IMG/VR virus record: IMGVR_UViG_3300034031_000009 | Span: 1-64,000 of that record | DNA length: 64,000 nucleotides | Reading direction: 5' to 3' (one strand) | From: a virus | In this document: positions 2,825 through 32,256 of the stretch, one piece after another | How the letters are laid out: each line of letters opens with the position of its first letter | How positions within the stretch are numbered: position 1 is the first letter of the stretch | The notes under the pieces: generated by a model | Databases searched by the model: none | Seen by the model: only the letters and a program-made list of their open reading frames with translations | Told to the model about the DNA's origin: nothing | Made by a program: the position numbers and the translations under genes

Positions 2825-2850
2825 CGACTCGACTCCTTGACTGTCCGAAA

Positions 2851-2879: not shown

Positions 2880-2907
2880 CCGTTTGTTGAAAAGAGGCGC
2901 GATAGGG

Positions 2908-3431: not shown

Positions 3432-3432
3432 T

Positions 3433-3624: not shown

Positions 3625-3638
3625 TCCCTTTACTCCTG

Positions 3639-3836: not shown

Positions 3837-4003
3837 TAGCGCGCCCAGGTCCAGCCGGCTGCCAAGGCCGCGTCAAGGTCGACATAGAAACGGGCGCCCC
3901 CGTTCGGATAGGCCATGCGAACCTGTAACCGTCCCTTGCGGCGAACGTGCTGCAGGTTCGCCTCTTTCCCGTCGAAACGGTTGCGCATGCGATAGTCGAT
4001 CAT
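3836..4003 (-). CDS. Hypothetical protein (55 aa), below the ORF-track cutoff
   Basis: MIDYRMRNRFDGKEANLQHVRRKGRLQVRMAYPNGGARFYVDLDAALAAGWTWAR. GGAGTGAG SD upstream; TAATG overlap with 3639..3836. Confidence 0.5.
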   Translation of the reverse strand: MIDYRMRNRFDGKEANLQHVRRKGRLQVRMAYPNGGARFYVDLDAALAAGWTWAR

Positions 4004-4090
4004 CCGACTCACTCCAAAGTTGACGGTTCACCGTTAGCGAGTCCGCGCTCGCATGCAAGGAAAAACTTAGGGCGATTGTCTTAGGGCTGC

Positions 4091-4199
4091 AGGTCGGCAC
4101 AGGTCGGCGGCTATCCCTCGACCATGGGCAGGTCGGCACAGGTCGGCGGCTATCCCTCGACCATGGGCAGGTCGGCACAGGTCGGCGGCTATCCCTCGA
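4091..4199. repeat. Three tandem 39-bp repeats (iteron-like)
   Basis: AGGTCGGCACAGGTCGGCGGCTATCCCTCGACCATGGGC at 4091-4129, 4130-4168 and partial 4169-4199. Each unit carries 2x AGGTCGGC. Confidence 0.9.
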
Positions 4200-4342
4200 T
4201 TATCTTAGGCCGGTTCGTCCCTAAGCCTTTCACCCCTAGAGATTCCGCGCTTTCTTGCCCGCTCACCTGGCATGTGGGCGGCTGAGCTGCCGAAAAACTT
4301 AGGCAAGCCAAAAAACTTAGGATCGGACGCATTCCCTAAGTT

Positions 4343-20154: not shown

Positions 20155-20155
20155 G

Positions 20156-20183
20156 TTGACAGACTAAGTTGAAAGTCCTACTC
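20156..20183 (+). promoter_or_regulatory. Sigma70-like promoter of the plus-strand accessory arm
   Basis: GTTGACAG-actaaGTTGAAAGTCC-TACTCC. Near-identical to the minus-strand promoter at 30655-30684. Confidence 0.5.
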
Positions 20184-20284
20184 CCCGAATCGGGCTGCGG
20201 TAGGAATGTTGCAGGGTGGCCCCGGAGACGGTGAGCCACCCTGTTGCGTTCTAGCCCCGCATTGGTCGCCCGAGGAGGATTGAG

Positions 20285-20680
20285 ATGAACCTTTTCATCC
20301 GCGTGTTCGGCACACGCGATCGCCATGACGAAGAAGTGGTGCCCGGGCTTACTCGCAATCGTGACGAATGGCGTGGCCTCGCCGCTGCGATGGGCTACGA
20401 GCCTCGCGCGCACCTCGACGTGCGACCGCACTCTCAGTGGCTGATCGACCGCGTTGCGCGGTTCCGCCGACAGGCCGCGCACGAGGAGTGCCTGAAGGTG
20501 CTGCGCGAGCTGCGCGATCGGGTTTACGCGCGCATGAGCGACATCGAGATGAGCAACAGATATGGCGGCACGACGCCGATCATGTCCGAACTCGACGGCG
20601 TGTTGAGCATGATCGACGAGGCCACGGAAGCATTGTTGGCAGACGCACCTGTCGGCCCGCCGCCACGGCCTTCGCGTTAG
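20285..20680 (+). CDS. Hypothetical protein (131 aa)
   Basis: ORF track; leader GTCGCCCGAGGAGGA upstream. Confidence 0.65.
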   Translation: MNLFIRVFGTRDRHDEEVVPGLTRNRDEWRGLAAAMGYEPRAHLDVRPHSQWLIDRVARFRRQAAHEECLKVLRELRDRVYARMSDIEMSNRYGGTTPIMSELDGVLSMIDEATEALLADAPVGPPPRPSR

Positions 20681-20714
20681 ACCCCTCACCAAGTCTCCAT
20701 GTGAAAGGATCGGT

Positions 20715-20927
20715 ATGTTCAAGATTGTGAGGCGCCTGCGTGTGACGCTGACGCTAAAGAGCGGAATAGAGATCGAGTTCGATTGCGACGACCTGACGAA
20801 GAACTTCCGTGGCAACGACTTGACCGGGCTGCAGGCCGCTCGCAGTCGGAACTGGCCGTTCTATATTCGCCTGGACGACATCTCGGCTATCCAGACCCGG
20901 AAAACTGGCTGGGTCATCAGGTTGTAG
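20715..20927 (+). CDS. Hypothetical protein (70 aa)
   Basis: ORF track; GAAAGGA SD. The stop codon lies inside the box at 20921-20938. Confidence 0.6.
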   Translation: MFKIVRRLRVTLTLKSGIEIEFDCDDLTKNFRGNDLTGLQAARSRNWPFYIRLDDISAIQTRKTGWVIRL

Positions 20928-20938
20928 GATTGTTGGAG
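20921..20938 (+). promoter_or_regulatory. M-box copy GTTGTAGGATTGTTGGAG
   Basis: 18/18 identical to 25518-25535. See findings for the full copy list. Confidence 0.8.
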
Positions 20939-21010
20939 GATCGCGCGCCCACTGCGGCAGCGCCCTCCGGAACCGGAAGCCTCTAAAAGTCGCCAAATGA
21001 AAGGATGGAT

Positions 21011-21670
21011 ATGAGTGCCGCGAACGAACTGGTCGAAATGCTGAGCATTGCAGCAACCGAGGAAGGCGTGACCATCTTCGACCATACGGCCGAGGAGATC
21101 GGTCTGCATGTCATGGATAATCACCGCGAGGTGCTGGCGGCGCTCTCTTCGCGCCGCATGAACCTCGTCAAGAGCACCTGCGAGGTGCGCGACGAGCGCT
21201 GGTCGATCCACATCGACGCCGGAGACGAGCCGTGCGGCGTTCGCGTAAAGCACCGCCAGTACGGCGACTATTACGACTGGCCCGAGGCGACGTTTGAAGG
21301 ACCAGGTGGTGTTTACGGCGGCATCTGTGCCGCTGCCGATCGCGCCTACGCGATGCAGGAGGAGTCCAGCTTCCGCACCAGATCAGCCGCGATGAAGGCT
21401 GCTCACGACTTCCTGCGCAGGTTCGGCGCTGGCGAGGTCGAGTATCTGGAATGGGACGTGGACAGTCAGAGCATGGTCGTCGTCGGTCACGAGCCGCGTC
21501 GGTCGATGTGGTGGAAGCATCCTGACGACAAGCCTGATCCTCTCGCGCCCTTCCACAGTGGTAGCGATGTTGTAGACGCCGACGAGGTGAAGCCCGAACT
21601 CGACGACGAATGGTTCGAGAAAGCTGAGATTCGCGACGGTGATCGGCTGATCCGGCCGGCGCGCGATTGA
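21011..21670 (+). CDS. Hypothetical protein (219 aa; alternative start 21005)
   Basis: ORF track; leader GTCGCCAAATGAAAGGA. The second ATG has proper SD spacing. Confidence 0.65.
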   Translation: MSAANELVEMLSIAATEEGVTIFDHTAEEIGLHVMDNHREVLAALSSRRMNLVKSTCEVRDERWSIHIDAGDEPCGVRVKHRQYGDYYDWPEATFEGPGGVYGGICAAADRAYAMQEESSFRTRSAAMKAAHDFLRRFGAGEVEYLEWDVDSQSMVVVGHEPRRSMWWKHPDDKPDPLAPFHSGSDVVDADEVKPELDDEWFEKAEIRDGDRLIRPARD

Positions 21671-21703
21671 GCCTCATCTGGTCGCCAAATTGGAGTTGTA
21701 GAA

Positions 21704-21955
21704 ATGTTGGATGACAAGGCGCTTCCCTGCATCGTCTGCGATAGGGAACTGACGAACATCGACGGCCCCAACCAGCCATCGAACGGTATCGCGTTCTCGA
21801 CGCCAGGGCACTACGGCACTACCGTATTCGACCCGATGGACGGCAGCCGGTTGGAGATCAACGTCTGTGACCCGTGCATGAGGGGTGCCGCGACACGCGG
21901 TCAAGTTCTGCACTATCGACCCGGCGGGCACGGCCCGTGGAAGGCCCCTCAATAG
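21704..21955 (+). CDS. Small Cys-containing protein (83 aa)
   Basis: CIVC ... CDPC pairs; leader GTCGCCAAATTGGAG upstream. Confidence 0.6.
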   Translation: MLDDKALPCIVCDRELTNIDGPNQPSNGIAFSTPGHYGTTVFDPMDGSRLEINVCDPCMRGAATRGQVLHYRPGGHGPWKAPQ

Positions 21956-21976
21956 GTCGCCATAGGGAGAATGAAG

Positions 21977-22174
21977 ATGACCTACCTCTACATCTATTTG
22001 GCAGTCGCCATCCCGCTCGCGATGTTCGCCTGCTTCTGGGGCGGTCGCGCATGGGATTACGATCAGGCGGTCGGCGGTGCATGGTGTGCTGCGCTATGGC
22101 CGATCATTCTCGTCGCCTTCCTCATTTGGGCGCCGTTCGGTGGCATGTTTTGGCTCGGACAGAAGTTCGGCTGA
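21977..22174 (+). CDS. Small membrane protein (65 aa), paralogue of 23355..23636
   Basis: MTYLYIYLAVAIPLAMFACFWGG...; two hydrophobic segments; leader GTCGCCATAGGGAGAATGAAGATG. Confidence 0.65.
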   Translation: MTYLYIYLAVAIPLAMFACFWGGRAWDYDQAVGGAWCAALWPIILVAFLIWAPFGGMFWLGQKFG

Positions 22175-22213
22175 GTTCGACCCCCATCCGGGTCGCCAAA
22201 GGAAAGGAGATTT

Positions 22214-22675
22214 ATGAGGATCGTGTCTGAAGCCGAGTTCGACGAGCGCATCAAGCAGATCGTCAGCGAGATCCCGGCCGACATCGGATGGGTGACAGGA
22301 CCGGGACGCTCCGGCGCCGTGGCAGCGGTCTACGCCAGCCACATCCTCGGCATCCCCTTCGTTCCCTACGGCTCGCGAGCGCCGCAGAACCTCGGCCGAC
22401 TACTCCTGGTGGATACAGCTCGCGAGAGCGGACGCACGCTGCGCAAGGCTGAGCGGCGCTACGAGTTGAGCGACCCGTTCGTGTGGGTCGGCTTCGAGGA
22501 GCCTCCGCGCGTCGCCTTCTGGTATGAAGCCGCGAAGCCACAGCGCTACCGGCACGAGCGACGCTGCCTATTCATCGGCACGACCAGTGAGATGCCGAAG
22601 ATCGGAGCCGATGGCGACCGACGCTTCCTGCCGCTGTCGGTAGGGATGTTGGAGGACTCGGCTGTCGCAGCCTGA
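22214..22675 (+). CDS. Chimeric ORF (153 aa): PRTase-like N-terminus plus VirE-helicase-like C-terminal fragment
   Basis: PRPP-loop-like LLLVDTARESGRTL. The C-terminus RCLFIGTTSEMPKIGADGDRRFLPL parallels primase motif [26 protein letters not shown]. Confidence 0.6.
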   Translation: MRIVSEAEFDERIKQIVSEIPADIGWVTGPGRSGAVAAVYASHILGIPFVPYGSRAPQNLGRLLLVDTARESGRTLRKAERRYELSDPFVWVGFEEPPRVAFWYEAAKPQRYRHERRCLFIGTTSEMPKIGADGDRRFLPLSVGMLEDSAVAA

Positions 22676-22724
22676 TCACCGAGAGCAGTTCGACCCCCAC
22701 CGAGGTCGTCAAAAGGAGAATGGC

Positions 22725-22901
22725 GTGAGACTGCTTCGCTTCATCTGCCGCTGGCGCGGCTACCACAAATGGGTTGAGCGTCAGCCGTTCGACTTCATCC
22801 CGTTCGACCAGGGTGGCTATAACTGCTCGACCTGCAGCGCCTACGAAGGCGTTGTCGCGCGGGCGCGGCGCGAGCGTGCGGGGTTGCCTTATGTCGGTTA
22901 A
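22725..22901 (+). CDS. Hypothetical protein (58 aa, GTG start), below the ORF-track cutoff
   Basis: Leader GTCGTCAAAAGGAGA lies 5 nt before the GTG. Overlaps the next start (ATGTCGGTTAA). Confidence 0.45.
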   Translation: MRLLRFICRWRGYHKWVERQPFDFIPFDQGGYNCSTCSAYEGVVARARRERAGLPYVG

Positions 22902-23010
22902 GCCGATCTTCGCCTGGTACGACCTATGGGTGGGCGTCTTCGTCGACCGCCCGAAGCGTAGGCTCTACATCTTTCCGGTGCCGTGCCTTGGACTGGTTGT
23001 CCAGTTCTGA
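22891..23010 (+). CDS. Small phage protein (39 aa)
   Basis: MSVKPIFAWYDLWVGVFVDRPKRRLYIFPVPCLGLVVQF. The WYDLW.GV..D...R.LYI.P pattern recurs in prophage small ORFs. Confidence 0.5.
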   Translation: MSVKPIFAWYDLWVGVFVDRPKRRLYIFPVPCLGLVVQF

Positions 23011-23040
23011 ACAAGAGCACCACCGAAGTCGCCAAGGAGA

Positions 23041-23316
23041 ATGAACGTGCCGAAGTTTCGCGTGCCGATCCAGGTCAGCGTCGCTCCAGTGCAGACCTAT
23101 AGCAAGACGATCACCGTCGAGGCGGCGTCGCGCGCGGAGGCTGCGCGGATCATCAAGGGGCATGTTCAATACGGCAACTCCGTGCTGTCGGACGCCATCA
23201 ACTCGCCGGGCTGGAAGGTTGTTGGAGGACGACTTGAACCGATCCAACCCGACAAGACCGCATACGACCACTATCTCAATGAAGAAGCGCTGGATTCGTG
23301 GGCGGCAGATGATTGA
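23041..23316 (+). CDS. Hypothetical protein (91 aa; alternative GTG start 23047)
   Basis: ORF track; leader GTCGCCAAGGAGA. Confidence 0.6.
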   Translation: MNVPKFRVPIQVSVAPVQTYSKTITVEAASRAEAARIIKGHVQYGNSVLSDAINSPGWKVVGGRLEPIQPDKTAYDHYLNEEALDSWAADD

Positions 23317-23354
23317 AACCCGGCGACCACAGGAGTCGCCATGAAAGGAGCACG

Positions 23355-23636
23355 ATGACGTACCTCTACATTTATCTCGCCGTGGCGCTGCCAACTGGGA
23401 TGTTCGCCTGCTTCAGAGGCGGCTGGAACTATGACTACGATGACGCTATCGGCGGTTGCTTGATGGCGCTCGTATGGCCGATCGTCGCGGTAGCCCTCCT
23501 CGCATGGCTTCCGTTCGGTGGTGCCTTCTGGCTTGGTGGCAAAATCAGCGGCCAATCTCCGCGTCCCCCGGCTGGCGACTTGCCACTACCGCGTCGTTCC
23601 GATGTTGCACCGCCGCCAGCGCGCCCGTCACGGTAG
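23355..23636 (+). CDS. Small membrane protein (93 aa), paralogue of 21977..22174
   Basis: MTYLYIYLAVALPTGMFACFRGG...; leader GTCGCCATGAAAGGAG; Pro/Arg-rich C-terminal extension. Confidence 0.6.
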   Translation: MTYLYIYLAVALPTGMFACFRGGWNYDYDDAIGGCLMALVWPIVAVALLAWLPFGGAFWLGGKISGQSPRPPAGDLPLPRRSDVAPPPARPSR

Positions 23637-23639
23637 CCC

Positions 23640-23867
23640 TCACTCGATAATCATAATCGCCAGCACTGTGAAGAATCCGACCTCGATCCCGCCGAACCGT
23701 CCGCCGGCCACCATCCCCCTCACGACCTTCAGCAGGTGGCCGGGACTCTCGTAGCGGATCATGTGTTCGATCGTGTCGAGTGCGAGTTGCCGGCCAAGTT
23801 CATTGTCGCGCGCCCAGACGCCGGTCTCTGATAGATCGACCGACTCGTTGATCCTGATGACGTTCAT
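23640..23867 (-). CDS. Hypothetical small protein (75 aa) downstream of the LuxR-type gene
   Basis: Start at MNVIRINES with a GGGGG SD-like run. Hydrophobic C-terminus. Confidence 0.55.
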   Translation of the reverse strand: MNVIRINESVDLSETGVWARDNELGRQLALDTIEHMIRYESPGHLLKVVRGMVAGGRFGGIEVGFFTVLAIMIIE

Positions 23868-23934
23868 CTGTTTAGCCCCCGTTGTTGGAGGCACTGTCTC
23901 AGGTACGCAAGCGTACAGCTATCACCCTAAAGGG

Positions 23935-24696
23935 TCAGAGCAGATCCTTGAGGTCGATTCGCTGCTCGTAGAGTAAACGGATGACTGCCTGAACAGTCTT
24001 GGATGCACCTAGAATCGTTCGTGCATCTTTAAGGTGCCGCTTCACTGTTTCCTCAGAGATGCCGAGATGCTTGCCGATTTCATGCTCGGTCAGGCCGCGT
24101 CCGGCAAGCATCACACATTCGACCTGCCGATCGGTGAGGCTGTGACGTTCAATGGCGTGACTGCCTGGCGACAGGATGAATCGTCGCCCGGCCTCAAATG
24201 CGAACAGGGCCACCGTCTGCGCCATGAGCAGGTTTTCCGTGGACAACTCGCGACCGGCGTTCATGGCAAAGCTGCACGAGCCTGACGGTTGATCGGGGAG
24301 GTGGACCGGAACGACAAACGTCTCCCCGATCCCCGCGCGTGCCTCGGCCACTGTGAAATCCCTCTCCGCGTCGGTGCGGTCGCGGGGAATATCGTAGGAC
24401 CGGAAGCCGACACTGGTGCGGCGCCCGAACGCCACCACCGGGTCGATGTCGATGAAGTGGTTGCGCGTGTAGTGCTCCGCCCAAGACTCCGCATGATTAT
24501 GGAAGCAGACCATCTCCCCCTTCGCCATGTGGTCGAGGTTCGATTGGTAGCCGGATAGATCGACCCACTGGACGACAGAGTAGCGGTCGAAGCGCATGTT
24601 GCTGCCGATAGCCTCAACCAGGACGGCCACCTGCCTCGGTGTGTTTGCTAGTCGGGTGGCGTCTATGAACGATTGGATGTCAACCAAGCGGCTCAT
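23935..24696 (-). CDS. LuxR-family regulator (253 aa): autoinducer-binding-like N-domain plus LuxR HTH
   Basis: WAEHYTRNHFIDIDP has the W-x3-Y-x8-DP spacing of the conserved W57/Y61/D70/P71 positions of TraR/LuxR. C-terminal HTH LTDRQVECVMLAGRGLTEHEIGKHLGISEETVKRHL. Confidence 0.8.
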   Translation of the reverse strand: MSRLVDIQSFIDATRLANTPRQVAVLVEAIGSNMRFDRYSVVQWVDLSGYQSNLDHMAKGEMVCFHNHAESWAEHYTRNHFIDIDPVVAFGRRTSVGFRSYDIPRDRTDAERDFTVAEARAGIGETFVVPVHLPDQPSGSCSFAMNAGRELSTENLLMAQTVALFAFEAGRRFILSPGSHAIERHSLTDRQVECVMLAGRGLTEHEIGKHLGISEETVKRHLKDARTILGASKTVQAVIRLLYEQRIDLKDLL

Positions 24697-24791
24697 GGGT
24701 CGAGGTTAGCTGCGTCGCCCTGTCGCGGGCAAGACCCCTTGATGTCGCGGCTTGTTTTGTAACATGATTCGTTGTAACTTAATTGCATTGA

Positions 24792-24840
24792 ACCGGGGCG
24801 GCCTCTCAGCGATGCACACTGCCCCGGTCTTTTGGGGTTT
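24792..24840 (+). terminator. Terminator-like hairpin upstream of (antisense to) the luxR-type gene start
   Basis: ACCGGGGC-21 nt-GCCCCGGT followed by CTTTTGGGGTTT. Confidence 0.35.
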
Positions 24841-24953
24841 CAGAGGAAGGGCGCGAGCGCACCCGGTCCCCGCATAGTGCGGGATCAACGCCCCGGCGCG
24901 AACGGCCGTACCTGCTGGCAGACCAGGTGTATAATCGTCTGCCTCCTTTCCCC

Positions 24954-24997
24954 GTTGTAGGATTGCTGTAGCCCGTCATGGGAATCCCCATAACGCC
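24954..24997 (+). promoter_or_regulatory. M-box plus hairpin module
   Basis: GTTGTAGGATTGCTGTAG-cccgt-CATGGGAATCCCCATAACGCC. The last 21 nt are identical to the reverse complement of 30145-30165. TATAAT lies at 24930-24935, just upstream. Confidence 0.75.
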
Positions 24998-25048
24998 TCT
25001 GCCGTTCGACGACCATCTAGGTCGCCATCATGGCGTTTCACTTTCTGG

Positions 25049-25078
25049 TTGACACGACTCCGAATCACTCGCTAGCGA
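25049..25078 (+). promoter_or_regulatory. Sigma70-like promoter pointing into the ORF-free locus
   Basis: GGTTGACAC-N15-GCTAGCGA. Same architecture as the promoters at 2879, 20156, 30684 and 32023. Confidence 0.4.
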
Positions 25079-25084
25079 TGCGGC

Positions 25085-25500
25085 TCGCCACGGCACTGAG
25101 ACCTCGGTCTTTAGGACGGTGACGGAGCAGGATAGGCCGGACGCCTGCTCCACGAAATCGCCCCGAGTTCCACGGCGTAAGTAGGCGACGGCCCAAAGCG
25201 TGAGATGGAGCGGGAACGGCCAGGGTGGCGGTCAGTAGTTCCGGATCAGAATGTCGGAGCGAATGCCGCCACCCTGCGAGTTTCGCAGTGCAGAGAAGCG
25301 CCGAGGCACGGGCAGTAGGTGGTACGGCTCGCGAGGCCCCCATCGAAGGATCGAGAAGGCGTCAGGAACTGGTCGCTGCGTAGGGTGGCGGCGAACGTCA
25401 TGCGCTGGGCGGTAGGTTCCGTCGCATGACGGAAACGGCGCCGCCACCCACTTTATCCACAGCCCATTGAGTCCCATCTAATCCCATGCCGTCCGTCCTC
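25085..25500 (+). ncRNA. Candidate structured RNA / int leader, or attP arm region (unassigned)
   Basis: No credible ORF in six frames. 11-bp helices at 25221-25231/25266-25276 and 25383-25393/25439-25449, the latter with a nested 9-bp helix 25396-25404/25423-25431. An 8-bp hairpin at 25124-25151. Confidence 0.25.
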
Positions 25501-25517
25501 GAACCAGCGACGCGACT

Positions 25518-25560
25518 GTTGTAGGATTGTTGGAGAAAGCGTTACGGGAAATCCCGTTAC
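25518..25560 (+). promoter_or_regulatory. M-box plus hairpin module upstream of int
   Basis: GTTGTAGGATTGTTGGAG-aaagcgtt-ACGGGAAATCCCGT-TACGC. Confidence 0.75.
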
Positions 25561-25658
25561 GCAGCAATGTCAACAACTTACGATGCAGCATCGGCGACTG
25601 CCGGGGTCGCCAATCACCATTCCATGACACCTTCTGGAACCTCCCTGGACACCGCGCA

Positions 25659-25680
25659 AACCCTTTAACCATAAAGGGTT
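25659..25680 (+). promoter_or_regulatory. Perfect 9-bp stem / 4-nt loop hairpin in the int upstream region
   Basis: AACCCTTTA-acca-TAAAGGGTT; no U-tract follows. Confidence 0.6.
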
Positions 25681-25775
25681 CCTGTCTCATACGTTCCCAT
25701 ATTGCATCTGGACAGCCCGCGCCTGACTGCTAAACCTACCACGGTTTCTACAGCAGCAGAGGGACGGCCTACAAC

Positions 25776-26960
25776 ATGCTCACCGATACCGAGATTAAGC
25801 AGACTCCGACCCCAGAGGCCGTCAAGAAGATGGCTGATGGGGGTGGTCTTTATATTGAGCTGTCCCCTGCCGGCACGCGGACCTGGCGATGGGCGTTCCG
25901 ACACTGTGGCAAGCAAAAGACGCTGACGATCGGTGCCTACCCGAAGGTCACGCTTGCCCAAGCGCGCAAGGCCCGCGATCTAGCTCGGGAGCGATTGAAG
26001 GACGGGGTCGACCCTGTGATCGAACGCCAGCAGCAACGCGAACGCGCCATGGCGGCGGCTGGAACGACGTTCGAGGACATCGGCCGTGAGTGGCAAAATA
26101 AACGGAAGCAGGAGGATCTGTCTGACTCGGCGTACCGCAAGGATAAGCAGTTGCTCGACCATCACGCTTATCCGGCAATCGGGCCGCGACCCATCAACAC
26201 GATCACGCCGCCGGAAATCCTGACGCTACTGCGTCGCGTCGAGGTCCGGGGTCATGTTCACACTGCGAAGCGTCTGCGCTCCACCCTATCGCGGGTGTTT
26301 CGTTATGGCGTTGCGACCGGGCGCTGTGATCGCGATCCCGCTGCGGACCTGGTGGGCGCGCTTGTGACGAAGAAAACAGTGCATCATCCCGCACTGTTCG
26401 ATCCGAAGGAAATCGGCGCCCTGGTGCGCGCCATGGACGGATACGAAGGTAAGTTGGTTCGCTTGGCAATGCTGATCCAGCTTCACACCTTCGTTCGGCC
26501 GGGGGAACTGCGGAAGGCCATGTGGTCCGAGTTCGACTTGGATACCGCAATTTGGAGGATTTCCGGCGCACGCATGAAAATGCGACGGGACCACATCGTA
26601 CCATTGTCGCCGCAGGTCGTTACGATGTTGCGCGAGCTGCAAGAATTGAGCGGGTACGGGCACTGGCTGTTTCCGTCGATGCTTGGCAGCAAGATTTGCA
26701 TGTCGGATGCCACCGTCAACGCAGCGCTGCGGCGTCTCGGGTACGGTCGCGACCGGGTGGTCGGCCACGGGTTCCGCAGAACCGCCAGCACGATTCTAAA
26801 CGAGAGCGGACTGTGGTCGGTGGATTCGGTCGAGCTTCAGTTGGCCCACGTCGACGGCTCTGTGAGGGGAATTTACAATGCTGCATTGCGTCTCGACGAG
26901 CGCACCAAAATGATGTCCTGGTACAGCGATTGGCTCAATGAGCAAGCCGCTAAAGTCTAG
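25776..26960 (+). CDS. int: Tyrosine integrase, P4-type (DUF4102-like N-terminus), 394 aa
   Basis: N-terminus LTDTEIKQ...GGGLYIELSPAGTRTWRWAFR...TLTIGAYP. Catalytic HGFRRT, LAHV and terminal Y (IYNAA). Confidence 0.9.
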   Translation: MLTDTEIKQTPTPEAVKKMADGGGLYIELSPAGTRTWRWAFRHCGKQKTLTIGAYPKVTLAQARKARDLARERLKDGVDPVIERQQQRERAMAAAGTTFEDIGREWQNKRKQEDLSDSAYRKDKQLLDHHAYPAIGPRPINTITPPEILTLLRRVEVRGHVHTAKRLRSTLSRVFRYGVATGRCDRDPAADLVGALVTKKTVHHPALFDPKEIGALVRAMDGYEGKLVRLAMLIQLHTFVRPGELRKAMWSEFDLDTAIWRISGARMKMRRDHIVPLSPQVVTMLRELQELSGYGHWLFPSMLGSKICMSDATVNAALRRLGYGRDRVVGHGFRRTASTILNESGLWSVDSVELQLAHVDGSVRGIYNAALRLDERTKMMSWYSDWLNEQAAKV

Positions 26961-27492
26961 TCCGGCGCGGGGTGTTGAGGTAGGTGAACATCGTCATCAG
27001 CACCTCGATCGTCAGATAGGACGGACGACCAGGAGACCCGATCCGTTCAATATCGGGATTGGAGTCGATCGCCCGTTTGACGGTTCCAGTGCTGTAGCCT
27101 GTTGCGACCGCGATCTGCGGGATACGGGAGAACTTGCGCAGGCGACTTCGCACGATGAAGCCGTAGGCGAATGCGGCAAATTGCACCTCCGTCTCGCGGA
27201 GCATGTCGCGGAAACTACCTTGCCGCTTTCCGGATCGTCGCAGGATCGCAGTGAGGTTTGGCACGAACTTGTTCAGCAGCAGGCCACCCTGGCTTTTGAT
27301 GCCATATCTCTGGATCAACTCGCACTCATGCTTGAGGGCGTCGATCTCCTCGAAGTGAGATGTAAAGGTGACGCTCAGTTCCTCCGCTCGCGGAAAGTCC
27401 GGGCGGCCCAGGTGCAACAGAAAGCGATCCCCAACGCCTTTCCCGACGTAGCACGGCACCCCATTGGCGCGGAAGGTGTAAACATAGAACAT
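26950..27492 (-). CDS. GIY-YIG domain protein with a C-terminal HTH-like region (180 aa)
   Basis: FYVYTF...GVPCYVGKGVGDRFLLH matches a GIY-YIG core. Convergent with int, with an 11-bp overlap. Locally lower GC by eye. Confidence 0.7.
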   Translation of the reverse strand: MFYVYTFRANGVPCYVGKGVGDRFLLHLGRPDFPRAEELSVTFTSHFEEIDALKHECELIQRYGIKSQGGLLLNKFVPNLTAILRRSGKRQGSFRDMLRETEVQFAAFAYGFIVRSRLRKFSRIPQIAVATGYSTGTVKRAIDSNPDIERIGSPGRPSYLTIEVLMTMFTYLNTPRRTRL

Positions 27493-27535
27493 ATCTCATG
27501 CCGCCCATACCTATCCATAGCGGTCCTGTCCAGAC

Positions 27536-27564
27536 TGGACATTCACTTAAAAGGTGATTATGAG
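27536..27564 (+). promoter_or_regulatory. Promoter of alpA-type gene 1
   Basis: TGGACA-N17-TATGAG. The core AAAAGGTGATTAT is shared with the upstream region of the second alpA-type gene (32025-32038). Confidence 0.45.
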
Positions 27565-27591
27565 CGCACCCGGTTGAAGGAGTAATGTCCC

Positions 27592-27783
27592 ATGAGCAAG
27601 CGAACGGAGTTTTGGCGCATCAATATGGTGATCGCCGTGGTCGGACTATCTCGCAGCGAGATTTATCGGAGAGTCGCTGCCGGCACGTTTCCGCAGCCAC
27701 GGAAATACAGCGGCGGCAGCACCGCGAGTTTTTGGGTCTCTGACGAGATCCACCAGTGGCAGCGCCAGCAGCTAGACGGCTGA
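27592..27783 (+). CDS. alpA: AlpA-family HTH protein (63 aa), candidate excisionase/regulator
   Basis: LSRSEIYRRVAAGTFPQPRKYSGGSTASFWVSDEIHQWQ matches the AlpA/Xis-type signature. AAGGAG SD. Confidence 0.85.
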   Translation: MSKRTEFWRINMVIAVVGLSRSEIYRRVAAGTFPQPRKYSGGSTASFWVSDEIHQWQRQQLDG

Positions 27784-27803
27784 TTGGCGACCCGCGCAGG
27801 GTT

Positions 27804-28055
27804 CTAAAGTCGGCCGCAGCGATTAGGCTCGCCGTGTGCGTCCGCGTAGCAAACCCCGGCTTCATCGCATCCGACGCCCATGTTGCACGGCTTGGTCGGA
27901 AGCAGTGCCTCCAACGATCCTACAACACCGACCTCAAAGAAGCCGTCCTCGACGGCTTGGGCGTGGATCGCTTCGATAGTCCACCCTTCGCCGATCTTCT
28001 GCTCAAGGTACGATTCCTCGAACCCTGCATCGCGGAGTTCCTGGTAGAGCGTCAT
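27804..28055 (-). CDS. Hypothetical acidic protein (83 aa)
   Basis: Start at MTLYQELR, with ATGA overlap with 28052..28315. Confidence 0.55.
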   Translation of the reverse strand: MTLYQELRDAGFEESYLEQKIGEGWTIEAIHAQAVEDGFFEVGVVGSLEALLPTKPCNMGVGCDEAGVCYADAHGEPNRCGRL

Positions 28056-28315
28056 GCCTGGTTCAGCCCGAATGCGCCGGCCTCCGCACAGCGGACGCAC
28101 GCCTTGTCCAGCATGAAGTCGACCAGGGTGTTCCCCTGTTCATCTTCCTTGCGCAATTCGTGCAGCAGTTCGATCGCGAACGTGTCACCGTCGACCACCT
28201 CGATATTGTGCTCCCCATAGTGACGATCGAACGCGATCGCAGCGGCGTGGGGAACGGCATCTACAGGCACGCGGATCACGATCTCGCCGCCTTCCAATTC
28301 AACCAATCGTCTCAT
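28052..28315 (-). CDS. Hypothetical protein (87 aa; alternative start 28321)
   Basis: Leader GTCGCCATAAGGAGGATGAAGATG. The second ATG has proper SD spacing. Confidence 0.6.
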   Translation of the reverse strand: MRRLVELEGGEIVIRVPVDAVPHAAAIAFDRHYGEHNIEVVDGDTFAIELLHELRKEDEQGNTLVDFMLDKACVRCAEAGAFGLNQA

Positions 28316-28414
28316 CTTCATCCTCCTTATGGCGACGGGCGCAGGGTTCTAATCGCGACGGCGGTGCCCATACGCCCAACCCTCGTCAGCGCTCCATTAC
28401 GCAAAGCAGTCGCA

Positions 28415-28675
28415 TCATCGCTCGCGTCCCGGAGCCAAACCGTAGAAGCCCTTCCAGTCCTCCGGATATTCGGAGCCGGACTTCTCGGTAGTGTCGACGG
28501 TTTGAAGCAGTCGCAACAGAGTTTCCAGCGGCATGGTGATCGTCTCGAAACCGATCTGAAGTGTGATTTTCCGACCGCGATGAGAACGGCTCTCCAGCGG
28601 GTCAACGTCATGGTCGATAGCTGCACGGCGACCGTCCTCGCCGTGCATCTCGATTGTGATTTTCTGCACTTTCAT
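28415..28675 (-). CDS. Hypothetical protein (86 aa)
   Basis: Start at MKVQKITIE, with AAAGGA SD. The competing ORF 28327..28626 looks like an Arg-rich shadow ORF. Confidence 0.5.
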   Translation of the reverse strand: MKVQKITIEMHGEDGRRAAIDHDVDPLESRSHRGRKITLQIGFETITMPLETLLRLLQTVDTTEKSGSEYPEDWKGFYGLAPGRER

Positions 28676-28755
28676 TTCGGTCCTTTCAGTTTGCAGGCAT
28701 CGCAGGCCGACTCGTCGCCGTCGTCGCGGATCGAAGCGATGAATTGGACTTTCAT
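28672..28755 (-). CDS. Micro-ORF (27 aa) coupled at both ends
   Basis: MKVQFIASIRDDGDESACDACKLKGPK. TGATG overlap upstream and ATGA overlap downstream. The N-terminus resembles the next gene (MKVQKITIEMHGEDG). Confidence 0.35.
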   Translation of the reverse strand: MKVQFIASIRDDGDESACDACKLKGPK

Positions 28756-28898
28756 CACCCCAACACCCAGACAGCGACACCCGTGATTGTGATTAAAGCA
28801 AGCATCGCTACGATGTGATGCCAGCTAATCTCATTGTCGGCCAAGGGTACTCCGATGAGGAGCAAATTGCGGGTGCGTTCGCATTCTTTATCGTCCAT
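28755..28898 (-). CDS. Small membrane-anchored protein (47 aa)
   Basis: MDDKECERTRNLLLIGVPLADNEISWHHIVAMLALITITGVAVWVLG. Leader GTCGCCAAAGGAGAATGAAGATG. Confidence 0.5.
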   Translation of the reverse strand: MDDKECERTRNLLLIGVPLADNEISWHHIVAMLALITITGVAVWVLG

Positions 28899-28948
28899 CT
28901 TCATTCTCCTTTGGCGACTCGTTGCGGTGGTCGAACTGTTCTCGGGAG

Positions 28949-29221
28949 TCACCCCGGATGGTTGGGGTTCTCCAACATCTCTTCCAGCACACCGTTGCCG
29001 ATCGGACACCCGAGGGCGTGCATCGCGAACGGCAGGCTTACCCAGCGGACCAGGCAGAACGGACATTCGTCGCTGACCTGCATGGCTTCCTCAACCAGTG
29101 CCACGGTGATGTCAGGAAATGCCGTGCGAGCCTCGGCATTGCTCATACCGCCGTAGCGCACGAGGTCGTCGATCAGATCGTCGTAACCAACCTCGGTGAT
29201 GCGGGTTTTTGAGTCAGTCAT
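28949..29221 (-). CDS. Small Cys/His-containing protein (90 aa)
   Basis: ORF track; CPFC...H..GC pattern. No SD of its own; preceded by an 11-codon uORF that carries the SD. Confidence 0.55.
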   Translation of the reverse strand: MTDSKTRITEVGYDDLIDDLVRYGGMSNAEARTAFPDITVALVEEAMQVSDECPFCLVRWVSLPFAMHALGCPIGNGVLEEMLENPNHPG

Positions 29222-29282
29222 CGGCGCCGTTGTCCCAGGGCATCATCATTCTCCTTTGGCGACGAGTGCAGCCGCTATAGAC

Positions 29283-29705
29283 TCACTCGGTAGCGGGCGT
29301 CTCGTCGTCCGGCTCTACAACATCGCTACCACTGATGGTCTCGCCGTTGCGCGTCGCGGCAAACAAGGATGGCGTGACGAACGTGTGCCGCCACTTATCG
29401 CACCACTGGTCGAGCAGCGCTTGTAGTTCGGCGTCAGCCTCCTTGATGACCTCCGGCTTGCCATTGCGATCCGGGTCATTGCCGTCATCGTAGGAGAACA
29501 GATCGTCCGCCTCGAAATACTGCGACTCGATCAGAACATCGGCGCTGAATGAGAGGGATTGCGGCATCGCTTCAACGATGCAGAACGTCTCGCCAGGATA
29601 CTCGGCCTTGCCCTCGGCAATCGCGTCTTCACGGCTCGCCAGCGGACCCGTGCTATACCATTCTTCGTTAGAGCCGACCCACCAGCCCCATGTCGGTTTC
29701 GTCAT
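29283..29705 (-). CDS. Hypothetical acidic protein (140 aa)
   Basis: Start at MTKPTWGWW, with GGAGGA SD. The C-terminus SGSDVVEPDDETPATE is shared with the next gene upstream. Confidence 0.6.
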   Translation of the reverse strand: MTKPTWGWWVGSNEEWYSTGPLASREDAIAEGKAEYPGETFCIVEAMPQSLSFSADVLIESQYFEADDLFSYDDGNDPDRNGKPEVIKEADAELQALLDQWCDKWRHTFVTPSLFAATRNGETISGSDVVEPDDETPATE

Positions 29706-29749
29706 TTCATTTCCTCCAATTATAAGACCGTTGCGGTCGCCCGCGCGGC

Positions 29750-30088
29750 TCACTCGGCAGCGGGCGCCTCGGCGGGAGCGGCTACAACATCGCTACCACT
29801 GCGTTCCAACGTATCGGTGACGAAGCGGCTGAACAGTTGCGCGGCGCTTTCGCCCATGTGCGCCATGATGTCGTTGTCGAACACCATCGAGAATGTGATC
29901 TTTCCTTCTGTGCCGTCGAAGTTCCGGTGGCGCACGGCCTCCAGCCGCATCGGGCCAGCGCGCATCTCGGCCACGAGTTGCACGGCCTTCGCAGCACGCA
30001 GCTTCTTGCGCGTCTCCCGATGTTCGGCGCGTTCCTTGCCGAGTTGTGCGTTCAGTTCATCGACTTGGATGGAAACAGGGTCGGTCAT
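29750..30088 (-). CDS. Hypothetical protein (112 aa) with a coiled-coil-like N-terminus
   Basis: ORF track; leader GTCGCCAAATTATCCACGAAAGGAA. C-terminus SGSDVVAAPAEAPAAE. Confidence 0.6.
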   Translation of the reverse strand: MTDPVSIQVDELNAQLGKERAEHRETRKKLRAAKAVQLVAEMRAGPMRLEAVRHRNFDGTEGKITFSMVFDNDIMAHMGESAAQLFSRFVTDTLERSGSDVVAAPAEAPAAE

Positions 30089-30144
30089 CTTGCAATTCCT
30101 TTCGTGGATAATTTGGCGACTGATGAGGGGATCTAACGGGGGAG

Positions 30145-30189
30145 GGCGTTATGGGGATTCCCATGTCGGCCCTCCAACACCGCTACAAC
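30145..30189 (-). promoter_or_regulatory. M-box plus hairpin module (minus strand)
   Basis: Reverse complement reads GTTGTAGCGGTGTTGGAG-ggccga-CATGGGAATCCCCATAACGCC. Confidence 0.75.
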
Positions 30190-30190
30190 G

Positions 30191-30619
30191 TCAATCCTGC
30201 CAGACGTAGCCCTGCTGCGGCACGTCACCTACGCGCTCCTCGGGTTTGATGTCAGCCGCGAAGATGAAATCGACACGATCGCCGGTCATGTTCCGCGAGG
30301 CGCGCTTGTTCTCGATGAACTGGTCGAGTGGAATGTAGCGACCCTCGCCGTAGCGGTTGTCCGGCTCCTCGACATATCCCTTGGCCTCGGAACTGTAGCG
30401 GCAGCCACGATCGTATGCCGTCGCTTCTGCCAGTGTTTCTTCCTCGCTGATCGAGTAGTCGTCGCCGCAGCAGGTGCAGGTGACGCGCTCGGGGTTGTGG
30501 CCGAAGCGGTTGTAGAAGATCACCTTGGCCTCGGCCTCGGGAGCCTCGATATACAGGTACTCGAAATCTTCTTTCGAGCTACCGCCCGAGTGCATGTCCA
30601 TGAACCGAGTCCAAACCAC
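30191..30619 (-). CDS. Hypothetical phage protein (142 aa, GTG start)
   Basis: GAAGGGAGA SD. Motif MDMHSGG...YIEA...CTCCGDDY resembles a recurrent phage hypothetical family. Confidence 0.6.
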   Translation of the reverse strand: MVWTRFMDMHSGGSSKEDFEYLYIEAPEAEAKVIFYNRFGHNPERVTCTCCGDDYSISEEETLAEATAYDRGCRYSSEAKGYVEEPDNRYGEGRYIPLDQFIENKRASRNMTGDRVDFIFAADIKPEERVGDVPQQGYVWQD

Positions 30620-30654
30620 CGTTCTTCTCCCTTCGTGCAATGATGTTGCGACTC

Positions 30655-30684
30655 GGGGATAGGACTTTCAACCTATGCTGTCAA
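30655..30684 (-). promoter_or_regulatory. Sigma70-like promoter (minus strand), twin of 20156-20183
   Basis: Reverse complement reads GGTTGACAG-cataGGTTGAAAGTCC-TATCCC. Confidence 0.5.
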
Positions 30685-30768
30685 CCGAAAGTTGAATGGA
30701 GATTTGGCGACCCTATGGGTCCACCGCCGTCAGAGGGGAAACGGGGAAAATCGCGGCGATCCTACAAC

Positions 30769-31644
30769 TCAGATACCACACCATCCCGCTTCGCAGCCGG
30801 GCTGCGGTTCGTCTAAGTCGTCAACCGGATCGCCGAGCAGCGCGTCAAACTCGTCGGTGTCGGGCGCACGGTACTTCCCCTTGCCGCTTTGCGCCCACTT
30901 CACAACTTCGCGGATGCCGACTGCGCCCATGCGGTTAGCTGGCCGAAACAGCGCGCCCCGGATCTTGCCGTTCTTCGTGCGTGGCCCTTTGATCCCCATT
31001 TCGATCTCAAGGGCTTCGATCTCAGCGATCCGCTCCTCATCCTCGGCCAGCAGTTTCAGGTCGGCCTTGTTCGAGTTGATGCAGGGGAAGCACTCCATCG
31101 ACCGGTGCGGCAGCGGCTCGACTCCGGCGCGCACGAGAAAGGCGTCGCGTGTCTCAGCAGTCCACTCGGCCATGGGCGCGAGCATGACGCGACCGCCATG
31201 GCTGTTGCTGTTCGCGTTGAAGATAGGGAAGCTCTTGCGGTCGATCCCTTCCTCGCGCCTCACGCCCACCAAGCAGACCGCGCGCTTGTCAGGGTCGTTC
31301 TCGGCCAACCAGCGTTCACCAGGCTCGATCTTGAGGATGCCCGAGCACCACTGAACCATCTGCGTCGGGAAGGCTTTCTTCTGCCGGGCCAAGCCGACGA
31401 ACCCGATCGAGGACGTTCTGGCAGTGCGGAACCCGAGGCCGCGCGTCCATGCTTCCAGTTTCTCGACGCGCTCGGCCCATAGCCGCGCCGCCCAGCCGGT
31501 GTCTGAATAAACGCAGACCACGTCCCGCAAGCCCTGGTCGTGTGCCCACTGAATGAGCGCCACCGAGTCGTTGCCGTAGCTGGTGAAGATGACGAAGCGG
31601 GGTCGCATCGGCACGTCGCCGAGTAGGGCATCGAAATCATCCAT
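30769..31644 (-). CDS. PAPS reductase / DndC-like family protein (291 aa)
   Basis: N-terminal PP-loop-like FTSYGNDSVAL and C-terminal Cys motifs (ECFPC, CEAGWCG). DDFDALLG occurs at both termini. Confidence 0.7.
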   Translation of the reverse strand: MDDFDALLGDVPMRPRFVIFTSYGNDSVALIQWAHDQGLRDVVCVYSDTGWAARLWAERVEKLEAWTRGLGFRTARTSSIGFVGLARQKKAFPTQMVQWCSGILKIEPGERWLAENDPDKRAVCLVGVRREEGIDRKSFPIFNANSNSHGGRVMLAPMAEWTAETRDAFLVRAGVEPLPHRSMECFPCINSNKADLKLLAEDEERIAEIEALEIEMGIKGPRTKNGKIRGALFRPANRMGAVGIREVVKWAQSGKGKYRAPDTDEFDALLGDPVDDLDEPQPGCEAGWCGI

Positions 31645-31926
31645 GGGCGGACCCTAGCCCTTCTGGCGTGTTTAATCAACTTCTTGGTGAAACCACCGCC
31701 TACAACGCCGATACAACAGCCAATCTCAACGGCTTAACGCCGAAACCGACCAACATCGGCGACTTATGCAGGAACAAAGAGGGCGGCGACGGTGTCCCCA
31801 CTGGCATGGGTGAAAAACGTCGCCGCCCAGTTGCGTGTCGATGGTGTCTTTAGCGCCAGCCGAGAACCACCGAACCTCCTTCGCGGGGGAGACCGCAAGA
31901 ACGTCGCCCGGCAGCGCGGGTTCTCA

Positions 31927-31953
31927 GAAAAAAAGACCCCGACGAAGCGGGGC
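31927..31953 (-). terminator. Promoter-proximal intrinsic terminator (minus strand)
   Basis: Reverse complement reads CCCCG-cttcgt-CGGGG followed by TCTTTTTTTC. Confidence 0.5.
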
Positions 31954-31986
31954 CAAGGTGAGGGAGGGTCAGCGGGGAAGCGCTAA
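31927..31986 (-). ncRNA. Candidate ~60-nt C/U-rich small RNA or attenuated leader
   Basis: Lies between the promoter at 31993-32023 and the terminator. Contains CUUCCCCGCUGACCCUCCCUCACC, an anti-SD-like tract. Confidence 0.3.
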
Positions 31987-31992
31987 CGAGAC

Positions 31993-32023
31993 TCACTAGA
32001 CACGAGCGCGGTTGTCGTGTCAA
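31993..32023 (-). promoter_or_regulatory. Sigma70-like promoter (minus strand), back to back with the alpA2 promoter
   Basis: Reverse complement reads GGTTGACAC-gacaaccgcgctcgtgt-CTAGTG. GGTTG-N6-CAACC dyad at 32010-32025. Confidence 0.4.
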
Positions 32024-32067: not shown

Positions 32068-32256
32068 GTGCCCGAACATCCTGTTGAGTTTCTTCGCCTT
32101 CGCGATGTCAAGCAACGCGCGGGCCTCTCGCGCAGCGAAATCTATCGCCGCATCGCCGCCGGCCGTTTTCCGCAGCCACGTAAATACCCCGGCACCACGA
32201 TGACCTTCTGGCTCTCGACCGAGGTACAGGCGTGGCAGCAGGAACAACTCCGGTGA
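32068..32256 (+). CDS. AlpA-family HTH protein, second copy (62 aa), first gene of the late/packaging operon
   Basis: LSRSEIYRRIAAGRFPQPRKYPGTTMTFWLSTEVQAWQ; GTG start. Confidence 0.8.
   Translation: MPEHPVEFLRLRDVKQRAGLSRSEIYRRIAAGRFPQPRKYPGTTMTFWLSTEVQAWQQEQLR

Follow-up and report, generated by a model that had tools for sequence, protein, structure and literature searches.

Junctions between accessory genes of an uncultured temperate phage may be repeated partial copies of its putative attachment site

We analysed a 64,000-nucleotide stretch of the IMG/VR virus record IMGVR_UViG_3300034031_000009 (positions 1 to 64,000; hereafter, the window), a temperate siphovirus-like genome with 62% G+C in which ~20 small, promoterless ORFan genes form two arrays converging on a tyrosine integrase gene (int), one running rightward from 20285 and the other leftward from 31644. 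Most of these open reading frames (ORFs) are preceded by GTCGCCA(A/T) and a Shine-Dalgarno (SD) sequence and often, ~65 bp further upstream, by a pair of direct repeat units that we call the M-box. From the sequence, we consider it very probable that the M-box and core boxes are parts of an attachment (att) site. The evidence also favors, by a smaller measure, reading the junction modules as repeats of part of the phage attachment site (attP), namely its P arm and core, rather than as promoters or RNA leaders.

The repeated cassette, which the original prediction had described as an M-box followed at some distance by GTCGCC, is real. The M-box pattern GTAGNNNNGTTGNAG, allowing at most one mismatch, matched 17 times against 1.9 expected, a count that none of 100 shuffles reached. 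GTCGCCAA matched 14 times against 3.3 expected. Fourteen of the 17 M-box matches fall within 20200-31714, with 7/7 left of int on the plus strand and 7/7 right of int on the minus strand, and ten GTCGCCAA matches within 20989-30711 follow the same strand rule, bearing out the proposed mirror orientation on two convergent arms. Outside 20.2-31.7 kb there are only three weak one-mismatch M-box matches and four GTCGCCAA copies, and a profile built from 19 full modules and run over the 64-kb window matches only at 20191-30768, always in gene orientation.

On recheck, all previously listed GTCGCC/GGCGAC and AGTTCGACC positions were correct. The box placed at 28980-28997 really lies at 28969-28989, and those at 23221 and 23881 are half boxes. 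Copies at 21556-21576 (+), 27908-27928 (-) and 30755-30770 (-) and a degenerate module at 20622-20699 had been missed. Box and GTCGCC do stand in a fixed relation, for which the suggested 60-100 nt was too loose: the GTAG-to-GTCGCC distance is 64-66 nt in seven copies of the window and likewise in 12 on related contigs, and the sequence between M-box and GTCGCC is almost unalignable despite this fixed distance. We also agree that the repeat is a nucleic-acid signal and not a protein motif. Box copies are intergenic or fall in three different reading frames, and the codons GGT AGC GAT GTT GTA (GGTAGCGATGTTGTA) show no synonymous change across five copies, so the constraint acts on nucleic acid rather than protein; a C-terminal peptide motif (SGSDVV...) was rejected for the same reasons. 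Overlooked in the original prediction were the same two boxes in an attP layout directly upstream of int.

This region, 25516-25788, looks like the phage attP (Table 1). It contains TGCCGGGGTCGCCA, the sole invariant block upstream of int in a four-phage alignment, which occurs next to int once each in the window and in the related contigs L083, L032, L030 and L084, and twice in L085. Direct units lie 85/74 bp upstream of TGCCGGGGTCGCCA in the window, 86/75 bp in L030, 87/76 bp in L032 and 74/63 bp in L083, and the position of the P-arm units is kept, to within 2 bp or at precisely one helical turn less, in L030, L032, L083, L084 and L085. Inverted units are found 125-166 bp downstream of TGCCGGGGTCGCCA, with one crossing the int ATG; this inverted unit covers the int start in the window and in L084 and L085, and in L083 and L030 it is found a short distance upstream. 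The proximal unit is ~54-55 bp from the core in junctions, 63-65 bp in L083 and L085, and 74-76 bp in the window, L030, L032 and L084, and these steps of one helical turn point to a constraint on double-stranded DNA. All nine copies of TGTTGCAA over 20.5 kb of L085 are no more than ~155 bp from a core, direct upstream of it and both direct and inverted downstream, and 4/4 copies of GTAGGTA(A/G)G in L084 fall within ~160 bp of the core in the same layout. In six phages, the int-proximal copy has its core flanked on either side by arm-type repeats of opposite orientation, whereas arm junctions have only the P-side pair.

The repeat units themselves differ by lineage, with M-box units in the window, L083 and L032 and GTTGGA(C/T) in L030, and of the five relatives that keep the window's core, three (L030, L084 and L085) combine it with different, lineage-specific repeats. 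The integrase N-terminal domain follows this division: identity to the window is 78% and 68% in L083 and L032, which share its units, compared to only 47-49% in L084, L085 and L030, which have others, while across these relatives the core-binding domain is 65-80% and the catalytic domain 61-68% identical to the window integrase. Arm-type repeat sequence thus co-varies with the integrase N-terminal domain while the core is constant across the clade. We base the attP assignment on this co-variation together with the integrase's arm-binding domain, the flanking direct and inverted repeats, and a core of inverted half-sites. The M-box is most likely the arm-type site pair for the integrase N-terminal domain, and we infer that GTCGCCA is the right core half-site and that the core resembles a tRNA 3' end. 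P4-type integrases usually target tRNA 3' ends, and the L084 core, AGTTCGAGCCCTGCCGGGGTCGCCA, has the exact geometry of tRNA positions G53-A76 (T-loop, T-stem, acceptor strand, G73 and CCA). The predicted bacterial attachment site (attB) is likely to be a tRNA gene ending ...GGTTCGAGCCC(C/T)GCCGGGGTCGCCA.

Both parts of the putative attP can be recognized in the junctions. The junction box at 20921-20937 and the P arm at 25518-25534 are identical over 17 nt. In 35 junction copies, the left flank is most complementary to GTCGCC at a single spacing, with 7 bp between them (3.29/6 versus 1.1-2.3 elsewhere), and 6/6 cases with at least 5/6 half-site matches have this spacer, including 23322-23341 and 25008-25027. 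The 18 nt left of GTCGCC agree with the left core of the L084 attP (AGTTCGAGCCCTGCCGGG) at 7.9 positions, compared to 4.7 in the background (36 junctions, p = 6e-10), a likeness that explains the AGTTCGACC box of the original prediction; AGTTCGACC...GTCGCCA is most likely a copy of the att core with the SD directly after it. Array ends carry copies that retain box and GTCGCCA and are without SD or gene (window 24952-25027, 30704-30770 and 27782-27799; L032 9822-9893; L083 4647, 5864 and 8147), several of them directly preceding the next promoter. Because GTCGCCA or GTCGCCAA is kept in these terminal copies, it is not merely part of a ribosome-binding site. The array-end copy at 27782-27799, CTGCGCGGGTCGCCAATC, is an inverted near-copy of the right half of the attP core.

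Several observations weigh against interpreting the junctions as att copies. The 7-bp overlap is their least conserved part, TGCCGGG being confined to int-proximal copies, so canonical homology-dependent strand exchange with attP should fail today, and selection seems to keep binding sites rather than recombination competence. No junction has P'-arm repeats, most have no good left half-site and ~1/3 have no M-box. Accretion at a single attP leaves the mirror orientation of the minus arm unexplained. Finally, the attP label at 25516-25788 is taken from architecture, and scans of genome, metagenome and plasmid collections yielded nothing informative on the predicted attB.

Table 1. Junctions, putative attP parts and associated features of the window (SD, Shine-Dalgarno sequence; PWM, position weight matrix)
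Feature	Position	Strand	Remarks
Plus-arm sigma-70-type promoter, TTGACAG-N6-GTTGAAAGTCCTAC	20156-20181	+	Context: drives cassette array; conserved in L032, L083, L084
Junction 1: M-box 20195-20215, long hairpin, core-like GTCGCCC, SD, ORF 20285-20680	20195-20271	+	Just downstream of arm promoter
Degenerate junction: M-box-like GCATTGTTGGCAG; GTTAGACCCC...GTCTCCA; before ORF 20715-20927	20622-20699	+	
Junction: M-box 20919-20939, GTCGCCAA 20989, ORF 21005-21670	20919-20996	+	TAG of box is stop of upstream ORF
M-box within ORF 21005-21670	21556-21576	+	Read SGSDVV; 120 nt to next GTCGCC
Rearranged junction: GTCGCCAA, then directly M-box	21681-21713	+	Box holds start codon of ORF 21704-21955
Core-like GTCGCCAT and SD before ORF 21971-22174	21956-21970	+	No M-box
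AGTTCGACCCCCATCCGG-GTCGCCAA and SD before ORF 22214-22675	22171-22213	+	13/18 identity to L084 attP left core
Full junction: M-box 22635-22655, AGTTCGACC 22687, GTCGTCAA 22705, SD, ORF 22725-22901	22635-22724	+	
GTCGCCAA and SD before ORF 23041-23316	23028-23040	+	
GGCGAC-N7-GTCGCCA and SD before ORF 23355-23636	23322-23354	+	Complete core geometry (23322-23341)
LuxR-type protein gene	23935-24696	-	Domain matches
Terminal junction: M-box 24952-24972, GACGAC-N7-GTCGCCA 25008-25027	24952-25027	+	No SD or gene; promoter 25049-25076 directly after
P arm of putative attP: M-box as a direct pair of units (GTTGTAG / GTTGGAG, 11 bp apart)	25516-25536	+	Units 85 and 74 bp upstream of GGGGTCGCCA
Putative attP core, GGCGAC-TGCCGGG-GTCGCCA	25593-25612	+	Inverted half-sites, 7-bp spacer; contains invariant 14-mer TGCCGGGGTCGCCA
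P' arm of putative attP: inverted M-box-like units 25735-25753 and 25768-25788	25735-25788	-	Second unit over int start codon; PWM score 13.4, minus strand
Tyrosine integrase (P4 type), N-terminal arm-DNA-binding domain	25776-26960	+	PF13356 (residues 2-87), PF22022, PF00589
AlpA-type gene	27592-27783		
Innermost minus-arm copy: M-box 27908-27928 with 9-bp hairpin in ORF 27804-28055; terminal core-like CTGCGCGGGTCGCCAATC (27782-27799)	27782-27928	-	
GATTAGAACCCTGCGCCC-GTCGCCAT and SD before ORF 28052-28321	28329-28367	-	No M-box
Full junction: M-box 28969-28989, AGTTCGACC, GTCGCCAAAGGAGAATGAAGATG, before ORF 28755-28898	28911-28989	-	3' 42 nt 93% identical to L083 8901-8942
Full junction before ORF 28949-29221	29256-29334	-	
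Junction: M-box, diverged core GGGCGACCGCAACGGTC, before ORF 29283-29705	29726-29801	-	Box read SGSDVV
Full intergenic junction before ORF 29750-30088	30113-30191	-	
Minus-arm copy of plus-arm promoter	30659-30684	-	
Terminal junction: half M-box, GACCC-ATA-GGGTCGCCAA	30704-30770	-	No SD; directly before minus-arm promoter
Weak M-box variant upstream of promoter of PAPS-reductase-like gene (30769-31644)	31699-31719	-	Orthologous boxes L032 9822, L030 9856
AlpA-type gene	32068-32256	+	

Comparison with related phages, for which the evidence base is six to eight uncultured contigs, links the junctions to turnover of gene content. Motif carriers form three groups: L032 (integrase 69% identical to that of the window, at least four module copies), L083 (integrase 74% identical, 11 copies of GTCGCCATAGGAGAATGA mirror-oriented around int, and box variants such as TGTTGGTAGCGCTGTTGGAG 65-66 nt upstream), and the short rhizosphere contigs L087 and L091 (several copies) and L105 (one). 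These rhizosphere contigs came from a second scan of Joint Genome Institute (JGI) metagenomes, which otherwise gave mostly chance matches. The first JGI scan found no carriers, searches of IMG/VR and of GTDB genomes for exact patterns returned either no match or matches at chance level, none of the GenBank isolate phages carries the junction, and the motif is absent from distant relatives found via the PAPS-reductase-like gene.

Orthologous positions in relatives retain the boxes, and accessory-gene content differs at the boxes, in line with the suggestion of the original prediction that they mark recombination boundaries. Core genes are 60-85% identical among the window, L032 and L083, whereas the arm ORFs are unrelated except for an 84-aa ORF (23640-23894) shared with L083; apart from it, the arms share only junctions and arm promoters. 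The 84-nt junction at 29256-29334 is 83% identical in L091, with unrelated flanking ORFs on both sides, and the PAPS-reductase module, whose breakpoints coincide with junctions, sits at opposite array ends in the window and L032. Relatives without modules have start-associated sequences of their own (TTAGAACCC...GGACT(T/C)CGAAC in L084 and AGGGATCGAAC in L085), suggesting that standardized junctions are a wider habit of the clade.

In the mechanism we propose, small circular cassettes made up of the right half of the core, an SD, an ORF and an arm-type pair would be inserted by the integrase at attP or at resident junctions. The inserted ORF would bring along a ribosome-binding site already joined to the core and be transcribed from the arm promoter, so that a captured ORF could be expressed at once. 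The fixed ~65-bp distance would place arm-bound and core-bound integrase on one helix face, and the conserved patches could also provide homology for ordinary recombination. It is very probable that the SD part works as a translation start region. Site-specific accretion as the origin of the arrays is nearly an even call, leaning slightly against, and continued activity of the junctions as recombination substrates is doubtful. Equally tentative is a more far-reaching version, in which the phage carries an integron-like cassette system run by an ordinary P4-type integrase, with cassettes excised and exchanged between co-infecting phages and two expression arrays growing toward int. The accretion reading is supported by L085, where two complete att-like sites in direct orientation (P repeats, TGCCGGGGTCGCCA and P' repeats, at 6860-7060 and 9770-10000) bracket a 2.9-kb segment with four genes.

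Other observations concern the surroundings of the att-like regions. An inverted relic resembling a tRNA T-arm, GGGCTCGAACCCGCGACC, lies at ~7145 in L085. In L032, an insertion of ~440 bp (12407-12860) with an 85-nt tRNA gene (Cys according to ARAGORN) separates the att-like region from int, and its left edge bears a duplicate of the initial 13 nt of the int start region. In the window, a 73-nt non-coding stretch ~550 nt upstream of int (25157-25228) is 92% identical to L083 5444-5516, a similarity that far exceeds that of the flanks, and is missing from other relatives.

The rival that we take most seriously, while still judging it unlikely, holds that the junction boxes are binding sites for the integrase and/or an AlpA-type excisionase and regulate the arrays, either as a stoperator-like roadblock or as an activator site, with the arrays assembled by homologous or illegitimate recombination. 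Conservation of the binding elements (arm-type pair and right half-site) and not of the crossover region fits this idea, as do the co-orientation of every copy with transcription, the inverted unit at the int start (the layout expected for autoregulation) and the two alpA genes flanking the minus arm; if GTCGCC lies near the transcription start, box centers would fall at about -60, -70 and -81, a phasing like that of class I activators. However, regulation would not need a whole tRNA-like core at each gene and leaves the replacement of cargo at junction boundaries unexplained, the spacer contains no conserved -10/-35, and the frequent expression of att-adjacent accessory genes in lysogens is a poor fit with silencing. 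Less probable still is a leader like the promoter early stem-loops (PeSLs) invoked by the original prediction or like start-associated sequences (SAS), in which the M-box would be a promoter or a box bound by protein on the RNA, a regulatory hairpin would follow, GTCGCCAA and SD would form an extended initiation signal recognized by the ribosome, RNA polymerase or an RNA-binding factor of the phage, and recombination would be a by-product. A strong SD does follow GTCGCCA at a fixed distance, up to 23 nt of GTCGCCA(A/T)AGGAGAATGAAGATG are common between genes, and the L084 start-associated sequence GGACT(T/C)CGAAC resembles the cluster K SAS (PMC3203893). The variable hairpin that had been described also stood in part: 6/13 copies fold significantly better than shuffles (z <= -2.2, no U-tracts), GTCGCC shows a tendency toward pairing with the 23 nt before it (z = -2.8), and the 3' half of the box pairs with downstream sequence (summed p ~0.007, driven by five copies). 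But half of the copies have no hairpin and RNAalifold finds no pairs across copies, so there is no consensus structure. No module contains a sigma-70 promoter, and aligned copies have no conserved -10/-35 columns. More than half of the M-box copies lie in translated sequence in several frames, the strict 7-bp half-site spacing and helical phasing point to double-stranded DNA, terminal copies of GTCGCCAA are without SD, and the inverted boxes around the core near int would be useless to an RNA leader. The PeSL-type control cassette was therefore not upheld.

We regard two further identities as very improbable. Sigma-54-type promoters would read the M-box as a -24/-12 element, TGG-N9-TTG, and could account for the rigid register in all copies, for an L083 copy (TGGCACGGATGTTGG) that fits 11/12 consensus positions and for the copy at 20199, which has GG-N10-GC with TTGCA. 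That copy is the only one with GC at -12, however; the others have GG or GT there, nearly all reading TTGG and not TTGC, ~40% have TG instead of GG at -24, the L030 box is plainly a tandem repeat (GTTGGACAAC/GTTGGACAGC), and no enhancer-binding protein is encoded in the window. Junctions could alternatively act as tRNA-like punctuation, that is, a tRNA-like element or hairpin-RCCA minihelix at which RNase P or RNase Z cuts to free monocistronic mRNAs beginning at the SD, and in at least ten copies a TTCGA-type box and GCCA do have the exact spacing of tRNA T-loop, T-stem, acceptor and CCA, with the SD directly after CCA. Against a cloverleaf, ARAGORN found nothing, no Rfam family matched even at E <= 10, acceptor-stem pairing gave p = 0.09 and there is no T-stem or anticodon arm; the tRNA likeness is simpler to explain if the att core copies the end of a tRNA gene.

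Additional candidates were rejected. The Vibrio fischeri lux box shares TGTAGGATCGT with the repeat; L083 has boxes without LuxR (17 kb fetched) and L084 has LuxR without boxes. The RfaH ops element, GGCGGTAGnnTG, resembles the less conserved half of the box, with spacing off by one. CsrA sites are contradicted by the many copies without GGA, GANTC sites of the CcrM type are not enriched in junctions, an upstream mini-ORF starting from the ATG in the box would have too short an SD spacing, and pairing between M-box and SD region amounts to 4 bp only, with no co-variation in the L083 variant. Known RNA families gave no match at the gathering score in the window and none of relevance at E <= 10 in the arms. 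Nor was any extracytoplasmic function (ECF) sigma factor found, which the original prediction had listed among possible binding proteins, the sole matches to sigma-70 region 4 being the helix-turn-helix (HTH) of the LuxR-type protein.

Genes in the window encode a large terminase of the lambda type, a portal, an S49 protease, capsid E and a tape measure protein; others encode a prim-pol/VapE protein, DUF2800, an Enc34-type protein that binds single-stranded DNA, and a helicase. The closest isolate is Rhizobium phage RHph_X2_30 (Casjensviridae), with a terminase identity of only 49%. Its genome (MW980061, our L029) carries an unrelated repeat, TCACAGCGTTAC, with 13 plus-strand copies at zero or one mismatch (74-530 and 1550) that cluster at the left genome end and occur in the spacer of two promoters. 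The array ORFs of the window have high G+C at third codon positions, and none matches a Pfam family above the curated cut-off.

Each array begins at a copy of one sigma-70-type promoter, TTGACAG-N6-GTTGAAAGTCCTA. This arm promoter is kept across lineages (window 20141-20190 and 30650-30700; L032 8100-8160; L083 1690-1745 and 8084-8147; L084 18100-18150), together with an upstream inverted copy of GTTGA (TTCAACT-N4-GTTGACAG-N6-GTTGAAAGTCCTA) and a GAGTC conserved past the -10 element, and it looks like an operator-bearing, possibly methylation-sensitive promoter. At 31928-32023 on the minus strand, another sigma-70-type promoter (TTGACACGAC...TCTAGT) is followed ~40 nt on by a strong intrinsic terminator (GGCCCCGCTTCGTCGGGGTC and T7). 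It is divergent from the plus-strand alpA gene and has a twin at 25049-25076 (+), and this arrangement is reminiscent of antitermination of the AlpA/Q type acting on the minus arm. Small minus-strand ORFs form a third array at window positions 1-4300, downstream of the prim-pol/VapE gene, where GANTC (the CcrM-type methylation site, mostly GACTC/GAGTC) is 4-5x over-represented, with 32, 25 and 12 sites in successive 2-kb bins compared to ~7 expected and seen elsewhere.

Within the plus arm, a segment at 23640-24696 (-) is inverted and contains the LuxR-type receptor gene (autoinducer-binding domain and GerE HTH) and the 84-aa ORF, with a relic half M-box in plus orientation between them (23878-23895); the LuxR homolog of L084 is located elsewhere. 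The same arm holds two paralogous small membrane-protein genes (21971-22174 and 23355-23636, both starting MTYLYIYLAVA...), each preceded by its own GTCGCCAT-type junction. In the minus arm, the junction at 29256-29334 is followed at 29221-29252 (-) by an SD and an 11-codon mini-ORF (ATGATGATGCCC...GACTGA), whose stop overlaps the start of ORF 28949-29221, an arrangement that suggests translational coupling.

To our knowledge, apart from illegitimate recombination and a few linker cases such as PeSLs, little explains how phages gain and swap small accessory genes. If ~20 ORFan cassette boundaries are copies of integrase recognition elements, site-specific accretion by a standard phage integrase becomes testable. 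If the junctions are instead regulatory, integrase or excisionase would control an accessory regulon, tying lysogeny decisions to expression. The analysis provides predictions of attP, of its arm-type sites and of an attB of tRNA type for an uncultured Casjensviridae-related clade, in which arm-type specificity and the integrase N-terminal domain co-vary while one core is kept. Within a limited literature search, we know of no described phage with attP arm-type-plus-core modules repeated between its accessory genes.

Several known systems share part of this organization. Like PeSLs, the modules are ~100-bp intergenic elements that end in SD and start codon, occupy an ORFan-rich plastic region and form indel boundaries. 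PeSLs, however, are strong sigma-70 promoters with a terminator stem-loop that recombine through homology (PMC2839356, PMC4122927), whereas the modules described here have no promoter and no consistent stem-loop, and their boxes appear to belong to a site-specific recombination site. Cluster K SAS and extended SAS (ESAS) likewise are lineage-specific motifs in one orientation over the SD near the start codons of non-structural genes, and in some SAS copies there is a second, upstream element, a presumed protein-binding site (PMC3203893, PMC12699233). But the SAS is a 13-bp GGGATAGGAGCCC located 3-8 bp before start codons, compared to GTCGCCA(A/T)AGGAGAATGA here, and the ESAS is an imperfect 17-bp inverted repeat beside the SAS, compared to a direct repeat pair ~55-65 bp away; no link to attP or integrase has been described and the host phylum differs, making the SAS an analog of our motif and not a fellow member. 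Cluster A stoperators are also numerous asymmetric sites at gene boundaries, oriented with transcription, on arms that converge on the integrase gene. They are single 13-bp sites distributed genome-wide that match the immunity-repressor operator at the early promoter (PMC9283540), in contrast to an M-box that is missing from the arm promoters and module-profile matches confined to 20-32 kb.

Recombination systems offer parallels too. As in integrons, a tyrosine recombinase lies beside co-oriented, mostly promoterless ORF cassettes with an outside promoter and turnover of cargo, and the cassettes are bounded by an element of ~60-140 bp with conserved ends and a variable middle. Unlike integrons, the recombinase has the P4-type domain set and not that of IntI, the junctions are not bulged R''/R' hairpins (no consensus fold), the arrays lie on both sides of int and are transcribed toward it, and the crossover region is unconserved. 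Tandem accretion of elements that are integrative and conjugative (ICEs) and of cis-mobilizable ones (CIMEs) at tRNA att sites similarly leaves direct copies of a core that mimics a tRNA end between acquired pieces of DNA, with non-autonomous pieces relying on the integrase of a neighbor (PMC5704250), but the pieces here are within a phage genome, are single-ORF units of 0.2-0.7 kb and have repeats that include arm-type sites. The int-proximal region has its counterpart in the attP sites of heterobivalent (lambda/P4-type) integrases, which combine arm-type and core-type sites (PMC4880445). Shared features include the N-terminal arm-binding domain, inverted half-sites with a 7-bp spacer, phased direct and inverted arm repeats, location next to int, a repeat over the int start, and a core resembling a tRNA 3' end. 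What sets the window apart from such sites is that, besides the complete site, ~20 apparent partial copies (P arm and core, no P' arm) are spread over 11 kb, and in most of them the core runs into a ribosome-binding site fused to it, with an ORFan following.

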